Shown here: positions 3,001-6,000 of the stretch, in pieces
How the letters are laid out: each line of letters opens with the position of its first letter
Position numbering within the stretch: the stretch's first letter is position 1
DNA from: a virus
Lineage: Duplodnaviria > Heunggongvirae > Uroviricota > Caudoviricetes
Length of the DNA: 13,508 nt
Virus record (IMG/VR): IMGVR_UViG_2537562192_000015
Direction: 5' to 3' (one strand)
Position numbers: made by a program

Positions 3001-6000
3001 AAGCCGTGACGGGCTTAAAGCACTGGGCGCAGAACGTCACCATTACATCAACCTTGCCCGCACTGAAAATCGCTTCGCTGGGCTGGCTGTAGGCGAGCGT
3101 CAGAGCGCGGGAGAGCAACAGTTAGGCTTACTGATAGTCATGCAGAAAATCGAGCAGGCAGCATTTAACGAGGCGATACAGAACGGCATGACACCGACCG
3201 AAGCGGTGCGGGAAGTTGCTCGCCGCATGGAGACGTTCGCCAGCCTGATGACGTCAGCGCCGTCTCTGGGGGGGAATCATGCGTAATTATGATTTCGCCG
3301 CAATTATTCCGGTATCACCTGGCATTATTGGCAGATATGAAACGGGCGTTGTCAGCGCACGCGCACTGCATAAAGCGCTCGGTGTAGGCCGTGATTTCAC
3401 CACCTGGATTAAAGGGCGTATTGAGGAATACGGATTTAAAAAAGGTGTGGATTTTGAGGCTGTAGAAAATTTGTACTTTGATTCCCCGAAACGGGGGAGC
3501 CAAAGTGTAAATATTGAACAGTTTGATTCTGGCTGGCACGTCGCCTGGGAGAACGTGAACATGCCTGACATCCGCAACGCTGCCGCCCTGTACATCGATA
3601 CTGCGGATAAGTTCGCACAGGTGAGCATCAACCATGCTGATTACATGCGCCATATCGTGAGCCATTTCGCCGCTGAGCGCATGAAACACGTTAAGCATTA
3701 TCAGAAGGAGGCTTTATCAAATTATCGCGCTGGTGGCCCTGTACGGCGTGAATATCCGCATGATGCAGGAATGGCAGGCAAAACAAAGGCGACCACGAAA
3801 GGGTCGCCAGTGGAGATAAAGGAAATCAAGCGCATCACCAACTATGCCATGAGTGTAGCTGGTGGACAAGGCTATCAGCCAGGCGGTCGGTTTTTAGTGG
3901 CTTTTAACCGCCGTGGGTATTTCTCGACAAAATCTTCAAGGGCAAATCGTTTTTGTGGGTGTTTTTTCACTCCGGGAAGAGGCGTTAACTCTTCGGGTTC
4001 TGATATCTCTTTAGCGCGTTTCAGTTCCAGTTGGCGCTCAAGTATGCGGTGCAAAAGCTGTCTTCGTTGTTCGGCAAAAATATCTGTAATGGATTGGTAC
4101 TTTTTGTTCATGCTGCTGCCCTGTAAAGCAATGCGCCGTAGTACCTCACACCACGGCGCTGATAGTGATTATTCTGATTCTTTGGCCTTGCGGCGCTGGC
4201 GGCGTTTGATCTCGCCTCGCATGGCTGTAACGATAAATTGCGCAGTGCTCTCGCCTGTTTCTTTTACTTGCTCCATAGCCTCAACAACTTCATGCGGGGC
4301 GCGAGCCTGTAATTTCTGTGATTTGTTATTGATATGGTCTCTTTCCATTTCTGCTTCCCTTTGTGATTACTGGAATCCAGTATACACGAAAAAGACCAAA
4401 ACAAAACGCTTGAAGTGGATTCCACTTAGTGATTATACTGGAATCCAGCTGAGTGTTTATCACTCAATGCAAACGAGGCTGAAAAGGATTGCCGTCCTTT
4501 CGCAGCCTCTGACCACCAACGATAGCAAGAGTATCGAGGCAGCTATGAGAAATCATATCACACACCCGCAAGGGCGGGACTCGCACAACCTGAATAAATT
4601 CACCTGGCGCTTTATGCAGTGCCTGACAGGCAGCATTGCAATATTCACCGTTACCGCTGCCACTGAGCGCGAAGCACGCGCCCGGCTGCCGCACGCACAT
4701 CTGATTTTTGTCGCCCGTATCCGTCAGGAGGCATCACATGGATAAAAACATGTTGATCGCCTCTTCTTTCGGGCTGTATGATGCCGAAGTCGCCCACATG
4801 GCGACCGGGTTTAGCAGCCTGAATCAGATAGCGGACAGCCGCTTACATTCCGATATGCGGTTTTTTTGTGTCCGTAAGCCTACCCATACCCGCATTATGG
4901 CGGGGCGTAACGGGGGAGCCTTTGCGCTCGCTGGTTCCTATCTGGCCAGTCTGCTAACCCCGTTACGTCTCGCCACCATGTTTAGCAGCGTAGTAGCGAG
5001 ACTCCTTAATCAACAGATAGGAGCCTTTCACATGGCTGTATCCGCACGCACATCTGATTTTTGTCGCCCGTATCCGTCAGGAGGTGACTCATGCTTAAAA
5101 CCTTCCGCGTCTTTTCCCGTGCTGTTAACAAGCGCGGCTATACCGTTGGCATCACGCAGAACGTGAAGGCCGAAAACGTCCAGGCTGCAATCAGCACAGT
5201 AATTAACAAATCAGCTAAAGCCGGTTTATCCGGCGTAATTATCCACGCAGTGACATGTATTCAGGATGAGGAGTAATTCATGTGTGATTTTTCCGATATG
5301 ACTGTTGATGAAGCAGCAAAAAGCGCAATGCAGGCAGAACTTATTTGTTCTCTGATGATGGGTAACACAGGTGAAATGACTGAGGGTGAGATTGAGTCAT
5401 TGCTCGCCCTGATTAAGCAGCTTACAGGTAAGGCAGGTAGCTGGCTGATTGCTGCATCGGGTGATGATGCAATATGCGTCAATGACTGAATCCTTTGTTG
5501 TTCTGAATATCATGAAATTAAGGGGGTGCAGTAATGCAGCAAATAACACTGGCAGAAGCCTCACTGCAAGCGCAACAGGTCGAAGTAATTAGCCGCATGA
5601 TTGAACGCAACCACGAAGAAATAGACGACCATGACCTTTCTGTTATTGCAGGACTTATCAAACAACTTTCCAGCAATGTGGCGGTGTGGTTAATGACGGA
5701 GGAAGAAAAACGCGGCGAACAATAACGGCTAAAAATAAACGGGAAATAAATATTAAGACGACTCCTTCAGGAGATTAATTCAATAGCATCAAAAAATACT
5801 GGCTTAACTGCCAGTAGCAAAACTCACCCCGAATTTATGTGCGGGGATATTTACCGCAATGAATACGGTAGCCACATGACGATGATCAGCAGAGGTAAGA
5901 AATGAAAAGCGCACCGAACTTAAAAAAACAGCCTCGAGGGAAAAAACACGCCGATACGGAAGTGATTATTTTCGCTGGCAGTGATGCGTGGGCGCACGCG

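Follow-up and report, generated by a model that had tools for sequence, protein, structure and literature searches.

Why should a satellite island of Escherichia coli carry the same 43 bp twice within a few hundred base pairs, and what lies between the two copies? The question is raised by a stretch of 13,508 nucleotides (nt), here called the window, which is recorded in IMG/VR as a virus of the Caudoviricetes (IMGVR_UViG_2537562192_000015) and is a tRNA-Gly-integrated E. coli satellite island of the P4-integrase/AlpA/primase type, resembling the phage-inducible chromosomal islands (PICIs). The 43-mer (CCGCACGCACATCTGATTTTTGTCGCCCGTATCCGTCAGGAGG) is found in exactly two copies, both on the + strand and with 0 mismatches, where 0 would be expected from 200 shuffles. 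Each copy ends in GGAGG, a Shine–Dalgarno sequence (SD) placed 6 nt upstream of an ATG (4738 and 5091 respectively) that overlaps the preceding stop codon in an ATGnnTAA arrangement. The exact duplication had been described in an earlier note on the same DNA, including the position of the first copy at the 3′ end of an Icd-like open reading frame (ORF) and the supply of an SD to the ORFs at 4738 and 5091, and this description holds. The note had gone on to read the repeat as a conserved linker at which cassettes of small proteins are exchanged by recombination. It was found here that the 353 bp separating the copies are one complete RNA unit of the P1/P7 immI type and not a gene for a 142-aa protein. 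We consider it highly probable that the repeat marks both ends of one unit of a tandem-repeatable RNA immunity module; that the natural boundary of the unit is the 3′ end of icd, because every unit closes with an icd whose last codons hold the SD of the translationally coupled next cistron; that a chimeric first icd (icd1) and a 104-bp deletion in the second (icd2) have left 43 nt in common; that recombination at this boundary adds, removes or swaps units; and that the C4 RNA of the unit would silence a primase operon.

The RNA unit between the copies

The unit consists, in order, of a promoter, an IsrK/a1b1 leader with a terminator, a C4 antisense RNA gene and a b2/a2 target that lies on the SD and AUG of the second icd (Table 1). 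A scan with the Rfam C4 model, which the earlier note had proposed, gave a match to the full length of RF01695 with 72.9 bits against a gathering score of 45 (E 5.7e-13). The RNA is predicted to fold with a minimum free energy of -48.1 kcal/mol (z -6.1), so that of its two specificity segments one belongs to a hairpin loop and the other is single-stranded. Upstream of C4, the Rfam c4-a1b1 model is matched at 4776-4825 and the isrK model along the leader, which is closed by a terminator-like hairpin followed by U7 (4837-4867, from folding). The -10 hexamer of the unit-internal promoter ends 7 nt upstream of the start of the isrK match at 4789; TTG of the -35 and one T of the -10 hexamer are invariant in an alignment that includes P7 (TTGAnC...TAnnnT), and the P1 counterpart of this promoter is P51b. 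Within the downstream target, a2 overlaps the SD AGGAG of icd2, and AUG 5032 is the icd2 start, the gene being full length in the related loci L002, L004 and L009 and 104 bp shorter in the window. Over ~190 nt (4801-4990) the DNA is 78-80% identical to the P1/P7 c4 region, which carries annotations of c4, icd and ant1/2. P7 is matched by the same three Rfam models in unchanged order, and its alignment with seven satellite units is collinear all the way from promoter to icd start.

Table 1. Features of the window from the divergent upstream gene to the primase gene
Feature	Position	Strand	Basis
YlcI/YnfO-family small protein, 59 aa	4169..4348	-	NF041551 72.3 bits (cutoff 30); phrog_949; PGAP annotation in L001
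Operator-like region: two near-palindromic TACTGGAATCCAG boxes and overlapping divergent promoter-like sites	4368..4448	.	repeats D13, I5; promoter scan
icd1, full-length Icd-like gene, 66 aa, chimera	4545..4745	+	NF033153 51.5 bits
43-mer copy 1: last 14 Icd codons (PHAHLIFVARIRQE) and GGAGG SD of the coupled next cistron	4689..4731	+	
Read-through ORF ('142 aa') spanning the whole RNA unit	4738..5166	+	no protein-level conservation; stop-free frame
Unit-internal sigma-70 promoter, TTGATC-18-TATGAT	4753..4782	+	promoter scan; collinear with promoter-like hexamers 5′ of a1b1 in P7
IsrK/seqA-like leader with b1 (4811-4817) and a1 (4825-4831)	4789..4867	+	Rfam isrK 35.4 bits; c4-a1b1 29.7 bits; fold
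C4 antisense RNA gene; a′ loop 4937-4944, b′ 4951-4957	4893..4980	+	RF01695
Downstream C4 target: b2 4982-4988, a2 5014-5021, SD AGGAG 5019-5023, AUG 5032-5034	4982..5034	+	pair counting, sequence
icd2 remnant: start codon kept, 104-bp internal deletion, frameshifted 44-codon ORF overlapping ORF61	5032..5166	+	alignment with L002, L004 icd2
43-mer copy 2: 3′ end of deleted icd2 and SD of ORF61	5042..5084	+	
ORF61, phrog_3672, predicted beta-beta-alpha-beta fold, function unknown	5091..5276	+	
ORF69, phrog_1478, ORF63 paralog, function unknown	5280..5489	+	
ORF63, phrog_1478, predicted two-helix hairpin, function unknown	5534..5725	+	
DUF927 primase/helicase-type replication protein	5902..8040	+	Pfam PF06048 E 3.5e-40; PGAP annotation

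All three RNA matches lie inside the ORF of 142 aa that had been taken for a cassette product. Among four units of ~90% identity, the variable columns of this frame are distributed over codon positions 1, 2 and 3 as 26:26:15, with no excess at the third position, and the changes are concentrated in the antisense and target sites. Units of different C4 types would encode unrelated peptides, and an NCBIfam scan gave no match in the 142-aa ORF of the window. Taken together, these comparisons of sequence argue that the ORF is not under protein-level selection, and the proposed 142-aa cassette protein is therefore abandoned. That the ORF contains the second repeat copy and is nevertheless not matched by the Icd-like model NF033153 is due to the frameshift in icd2; in the equivalent ORF of L004 the model matches the icd2 portion only. 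Read in phase with the icd2 AUG, the unit of the window contains 0 stop codons, compared with 6-7 in its two other frames (4-8 for the four related units). This frame is stop-free in all satellite C4 units examined (window, L002, L004, L006, L007 and L008) and closed in P7, and AUG 4897, at the 5′ end of C4, is exactly 45 codons upstream of AUG 5032 and in frame with it. Because P4 eta and Gifsy-1 orf45 display the same pattern, 4738-5166 is, by analogy, probably an eta/orf45-like regulatory reading frame and not an accessory protein gene.

The frame could also be read as a genuine protein gene, encoding for example an Eta/Ash-like regulator or an extended form of Icd, with the RNA embedded in it; the ORFs concerned are 4738-5166 in the window and ORFs of 153-208 aa in relatives, which the annotation pipeline PGAP labels 'Icd-like'. 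Such a gene would account for the absence of stops in every satellite unit examined and for a start codon coupled to the icd1 stop, it would have a parallel in P4 eta, a translated ORF that overlies CI, and a weak match to phrog_995 (E 2.5e-4) agrees with it. It does not account for the spread of substitutions over the codon positions, for unrelated peptides over different C4 types or for the closed frame of P7; moreover the L004 match is confined to icd2, and in the window the 104-bp deletion separates the frame from the Icd domain. A protein gene is consequently an improbable reading, and a regulatory frame is preferred. In L009 (3220-4037) a shift of the frame by one, caused by the 104-bp deletion, joins the frame of unit A to that of unit B, giving a fused stop-free frame of ~272 codons over two C4 RNAs and the third icd.

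Covariation of C4 with its targets

The a′ loop of C4 and the target segments a1 and a2 differ among units yet always match within each unit, and seven specificities have been recorded (given as a′/a1/a2): CUAUCUG/CAGAUAG/CAGAUAG in the window, CCAGAUGA/CAUCUGG/UCAUCUGG in L004, CUGUAGUG/CUACAG/CACUACAG in L007, CUCUUAC/GUAAGAG/GUAAGAG in L008, CCCAAUUU/AAAUUGG/AAAUUGGG in L009b, CUAUGUU/AACAUAG/AACAUAG in L006b and CACAAUC/GAUUGUG/GAUUGUG in P7. For the downstream target (a′:a2 and b′:b2), 120/120 cells are paired, 8 pairs are changed on both sides and 24 cells are compensatory; none of 500 shuffles reached any of these measures, and controls in which the segments were slid pair at 32-48%. 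For the upstream target (a1:a′ and b1:b′), 99.1% of cells are paired, the pairs changed on both sides again number 8 and the compensatory cells 23; the covariation score was reached by 0/500 shuffles and the two counting measures by at most 1/500, and slid controls pair at 18-41%. A crude matrix of duplex energies points in the same direction, cognate pairs having -29.1 against -20.5 kcal/mol for non-cognate pairs downstream and -35.9 against -26.4 kcal/mol upstream, but this matrix is noisy and includes stem sequences, and explicit pair counting was used in its place. The covariation is strong comparative evidence of a working antisense system with distinct specificities.

The earlier note had itself offered an antisense RNA as an alternative, proposing that both 43-mers are the target sites, covering ribosome-binding sites as in the immunity systems P1 c4 and P4 CI. 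The kind of system was correctly named: a C4 RNA is encoded between the copies, and an SD does stand at the end of each. The targets are elsewhere, however. A search for complementarity between the 43-mer and the C4 a′b′ segment gave a best duplex of -11.1 kcal/mol, no better than the shuffled background (-11.3 +/- 3.9), as against -28.5 kcal/mol (b1a1) and -22.2 kcal/mol (a2) for the true targets. Covariation places these at 4811-4831 and 4982-5021, and in L010 the 3′ end of the upstream icd is divergent with C4 specificity unchanged. The 43-mer is not a C4 target, and a reading that makes it one has next to no probability in our estimate.

An exact 21-nt core of the enterobacterial C4 was also met in contigs assigned to distant phyla (L023, L028, L029 and L017, from Flavobacteriaceae, Lutibacter and a Bacillota metagenome-assembled genome). 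The Rfam C4 gathering score was reached by the Bacillota contig L017 only, the other three having no C4 match, and these occurrences probably reflect contamination, mis-binning or chance rather than a real distribution.

Origin of the repeat and exchange of units

The limits of the repeat are explained by the history of the two icd genes. The first, icd1, passes the NCBIfam model of phage Icd-like proteins over 4545-4742 (cutoff 25 bits) and is a chimera: its 5′ part (4545-4603) is of icd1 type, with 56/59 positions identical to L004 icd1, and its 3′ part (4604-4731) is of icd2 type, with 127/128 identical to the icd of L002. The most parsimonious account of these alignments is a gene-conversion patch by which the 3′ 128 nt were turned into icd2 type. 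In relatives the gene 3′ of a2 is a full-length icd of 56 aa (MAVSARPYFVWRFMQCLTD...RIRQEVTHA) with the 43-mer at its end (L002, L004 and unit 3 of L009), and in the full-length icd2 of L002 and L004 a distance of exactly 104 bp separates two CCGCACGC 8-mers. A single 8-mer is left in the window, at the deletion joint (5042-5049). In the window copy 2, as in L003 and L010, SD and ATG are kept together with the first six codons, after which the sequence jumps to the second 8-mer, a deletion of 104 bp with a frameshift. The left edge of the 43-mer is where it is because of this joint, and similarity between the copies runs on to 59 nt at 90%. The Icd-like fragment EPFTWLYPHAHLIFVARIRQEVTHA*, which had been noticed as start-less, is indeed encoded at 5021-5098, but a start codon is present and has been put out of frame by the deletion. 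The alignments indicate that the two icd copies once shared 128 nt and that the deletion cut the shared part to 43; the 43-mer is a remnant of this icd tract and not a dedicated linker. The deleted icd2 would keep its regulatory start and lose the Icd protein, intact Icd being supplied by the chimeric icd1. The same deletion stands behind two C4 types, the L002 type in L003 (3014-3066) and type A in the window (5032-5084) and L010, so that either slippage at the CCGCACGC repeats has recurred or the deletion has been transferred by recombination.

The clearest evidence for exchange of whole units comes from E. coli 2012EL-2448 (L009), whose island has flanks that are practically those of the window (3564/3566 and 3042/3043 bases identical) and differs from it solely by one extra [a1b1-C4-icd] unit of 457 bp. 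This unit is made up of a1b1, a C4 whose a′ loop differs, and an icd of full length; its insertion point lies immediately 3′ of copy 2 and its end is formed by a third 43-mer, its first ~55 nt being identical to the unit of the window, with near-identity further on. Among relatives the 43-mer is present in 1, 2 or 3 copies, and arrays of 1-3 units are seen across L002, L003, L006, L009, L010 and L011. One unit is found in L002 and L003 and two in L004, L006, L007, L010 and L011, with C4 types and intact or deleted icd genes in various combinations. Tandem C4 units also occur outside Escherichia, as shown by a pair of [isrK-C4] units 826 bp apart in Symbiopectobacterium sp. RP contig 2 (L013/L024). 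The arrangement of the window recurs in about 22 complete genomes at a coverage of at least 80%, which rules out an assembly artefact or a chance repeat; among the E. coli rows sampled, ORF61 is preceded by a full-length icd much more often than by the icd with the 104-bp deletion.

These observations bear directly on the proposal that the 43-mer is a dedicated, conserved linker for cassettes of accessory proteins and that the interval holds a novel 142-aa protein. In its favour, gain and loss of units do fall exactly at the repeats, copy number does range from 1 to 3, and the small ORFs after the icd 3′ end do differ in L004 and L006-L008, so that the variation in content expected from an alignment of related islands was found there. 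Between copies, however, the content is always an a1b1-C4-icd unit: what is exchanged is an RNA unit whose homologue is P1/P7 immI, and the ORF across it has neither third-position bias nor a family match. Nor does the repeat behave as a site of its own. Its left edge is a deletion joint inside a gene; the joints share homology over far more than 43 nt (128 nt of icd), as fits ordinary homologous recombination; and the repeat scan listed no inverted repeat within the 43-mer, the locus showing neither the inverted-repeat site nor the unrelated protein cassettes between sites of an integron-like site-specific system. Exchange by recombination has in this way been borne out, with an RNA unit as the cassette and an icd remnant in place of the linker. 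The linker proposal is largely refuted as to the 142-aa cassette, and as a whole we regard it as unlikely, at about the level of the protein-gene reading or slightly above it. The comparisons instead indicate that ordinary homologous recombination at the icd 3′ end adds, removes and reshuffles units.

A more far-reaching interpretation can be put forward only tentatively. Arrays of 1-3 heterospecific [a1b1-C4-icd] units may constitute a stackable and rapidly exchangeable immunity barcode of E. coli satellites, in which each unit brings its own promoter and a′/a1/a2 'key', recombination between the icd 3′ end and the unit 5′ end swaps or adds specificities, and translation through the stop-free frame that spans all units acts as a master override. 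If this were so, the co-resident satellites or P1-like phages subject to cross-repression would change with such swaps. When IMG/VR was scanned for the C4 target specificity of the window, a single contig of 6.9 kb and no full phage were returned, and cross-immunity with a helper is for that reason unsupported.

Predicted control of the primase operon, and its known relatives

From the anatomy of the unit we infer its expression, RNA processing, repressive outcome and the role of translation as follows. A regulated promoter in 4368-4448 would drive icd1, and the unit-internal promoter would give an untranslated leader yielding an IsrK-like RNA and C4. Once C4 has been processed from the leader transcript, its a′ loop and b′ segment would base-pair with b2/a2 and so occlude the SD and AUG (5019-5034), the leader ORF would remain untranslated, and ORF61, ORF69, ORF63 and the primase gene would be silenced. 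Rho-dependent polarity operates in the icd system of P1, and silencing here might follow that route or take the form of termination as in P4. The replication genes of the island would stay off, as the alpha operon does under P4 CI and icd-ant under P1 c4. The a1/b1 leader may serve as a second target or as a competitor, like P4 seqA and Gifsy-1 IsrK. When the regulated upstream promoter fires, translation from icd1 through the frame 4738-5166 would plausibly override both the terminator and the antisense block, in the manner of P4 eta and Gifsy-1 orf45.

Several points weigh against this account or against parts of it. Expression of C4 and of the leader, and their action, are read from the sequence. 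The leader of the window scores below the Rfam gathering thresholds (35.4 against 50 for isrK and 29.7 against 46.7 for c4-a1b1), homologous positions in relatives and P7 exceeding them. An antirepressor is encoded at this place in P1 and Gifsy-1 but not in the window, where position is what suggests the downstream genes as the regulated output. A frame that is stop-free in all satellite units examined may leave room for a translated product. Finally, gene conversion as the origin of the icd1 chimera is a reading by parsimony, and between the window and L009 the change may have been the loss of a unit in the one or the gain of a unit in the other.

Three known systems stand nearest to this one. 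In P1 and P7 the order is the same, from promoter through a1b1, hairpin, c4 and b2/a2 on the icd SD/AUG to icd and an overlapping start of the next gene, and C4 a′/b′ is likewise complementary to targets downstream (b2/a2) and upstream (b1/a1). C4 of the immI type is cut by RNase P to ~77 nt and acts in trans as a repressor, as would be predicted for the C4 of the window. The heteroimmunity of the two phages depends on C4 specificity in the a′ loop (PMC12197685), which is also where the specificity of the window resides. Unlike these plasmid prophages, the window is a chromosomal satellite island; its distal genes are ORF61, ORF69, ORF63 and the DUF927 primase gene and not the antirepressor Ant; an extra icd precedes the unit, and the icd 3′ of C4 has been inactivated by the 104-bp deletion; the frame over c4 is open and not closed as in P7; and satellite units can be tandemly repeated with different specificities.

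In P4, where seqA, CI and seqC lie in eta/kil upstream of the alpha primase operon, the likeness is one of logic. By analogy, an antisense RNA processed from a leader would hold the primase operon of a satellite off, with targets on both sides, upstream and downstream, and a constitutive promoter inside the ORF that overlays the RNA. The P4 eta ORF, in the account of Forti et al. (1999) summarised in PMC10111431, overlays seqA and CI, holds a constitutive promoter and shows coupling to the gene before it; translation of eta is there said to prevent immunity-specific termination. The window has the corresponding traits (ATG 4738 on the icd1 stop, the promoter at 4753-4782 and the stop-free frame), from which an eta-type function may be suggested by analogy. 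Rfam C4 and isrK models detect the relatives of CI and seqA, and both their matches in Gram-negative PICIs and the kinship to P4 CI/seqA have already been published (PMC10111431). The sequence homology of the window is, however, to P1/P7 c4-icd; an icd follows the target; and psu, sid and delta are not annotated in the L001 region, no dedicated search for them having been made.

The isrK - orf45 (STnc1160) - anrP locus of the Salmonella prophage Gifsy-1 shares with the window an IsrK-type leader with a terminator and a C4/CI-like RNA overlapped by an ORF. The leader of Gifsy-1 has a Rho-independent terminator that is partly read through (PMC4825925). Its orf45 overlaps the CI/C4-like STnc1160, shows conservation at the nucleotide but not the amino-acid level, and is coupled in translation to the gene that follows (PMC4825925, PMC12197685); the AUG 45 codons before icd2 in the window recalls it. 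The output in Gifsy-1 differs, being an antirepressor and AntQ toxicity, and the ORF there stops before anrP, whereas that of the window runs into icd. The system is thus of a known kind (P1 c4-icd, P4 CI/eta, Gifsy-1 IsrK/orf45), and the tandem heterospecific arrays are its only, and modestly, new aspect; no description of such arrays with unit-sized polymorphism was found in the literature searched. What is gained is a base-by-base record of a PICI-like satellite with a P1-type antisense lock, of seven co-varying specificities, upstream of a primase operon, together with the recognition that such locks occur as recombining tandem arrays. A false lead towards a novel protein cassette has been removed, and PGAP-style annotation is seen to mislabel the C4/IsrK RNA units of E. 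coli islands systematically, as 'Icd-like' or 'Ash' proteins or as pseudogenes. The specificity and turnover of satellite immunity can now be tested directly by simple reporter and compensatory-mutation experiments.

The primase gene is the distal gene of the presumed C4-controlled operon, judged by co-orientation and position, and ORF61, ORF69 and ORF63 are probably under C4 control together with it. ORF69 and ORF63 are paralogous, as had been noticed (30% identity, E 1e-8). The small proteins were also said to have no recognisable family; families do exist (phrog_3672 and phrog_1478), although they are of unknown function, and Pfam gave no match for the small ORFs. Sequence searches of the PDB gave no significant match, and a candidate identity of ORF63 with Hha was rejected (PDB sequence match with E 0.59 only). 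Structure prediction, which the earlier note had proposed, gave no significant match either: confident AlphaFold models of ORF61 and ORF63 found nothing in the PDB with Foldseek at E <= 0.001. The ORF61 model resembles the LX/eL20 N-domain as a fold only and ORF63 is a generic helical hairpin, and no function can therefore be assigned. Searches with ORF61 and ORF63 returned close E. coli relatives only, so that no deeper profiles could be built. As a speculation from analogy, the three ORFs sit where epsilon, Ant and AnrP sit in P4, P1 and Gifsy-1 and could be helper-directed factors.

Upstream, the YlcI/YnfO-family gene is divergent from icd1, and its product is a candidate repressor of the regulated upstream promoter. 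Between the two genes, copies of TACTGGAATCCAG at 4368-4380 and 4436-4448 and promoter-like matches on the + (4410-4439) and - (4459-4432) strands from the promoter scan give the region the look of an operator of that promoter. A 488-aa ORF at 3279-4745 is an artefact: it begins in an AntA/AntB N-terminal fragment (a RefSeq pseudogene), crosses the antisense of two minus-strand genes and ends in icd1, and comparable read-throughs in RefSeq relatives are labelled 'Ash family protein'. An Rfam int-alpA RNA lies between int and alpA in related islands (L006 464-529, L015 7635-7702), and no match to it was found in the window. The tail of the island (9072-11660) encodes SSB (9072-9521), a ProQ/FinO-family protein (9538-10005), a PerC-family regulator (9974-10267) and two further ORFs (11189-11491 and ~11496-11660) with a common LWRRAA motif; the ProQ/FinO-family RNA chaperone, adjoining an antisense-RNA system, may be relevant to it.

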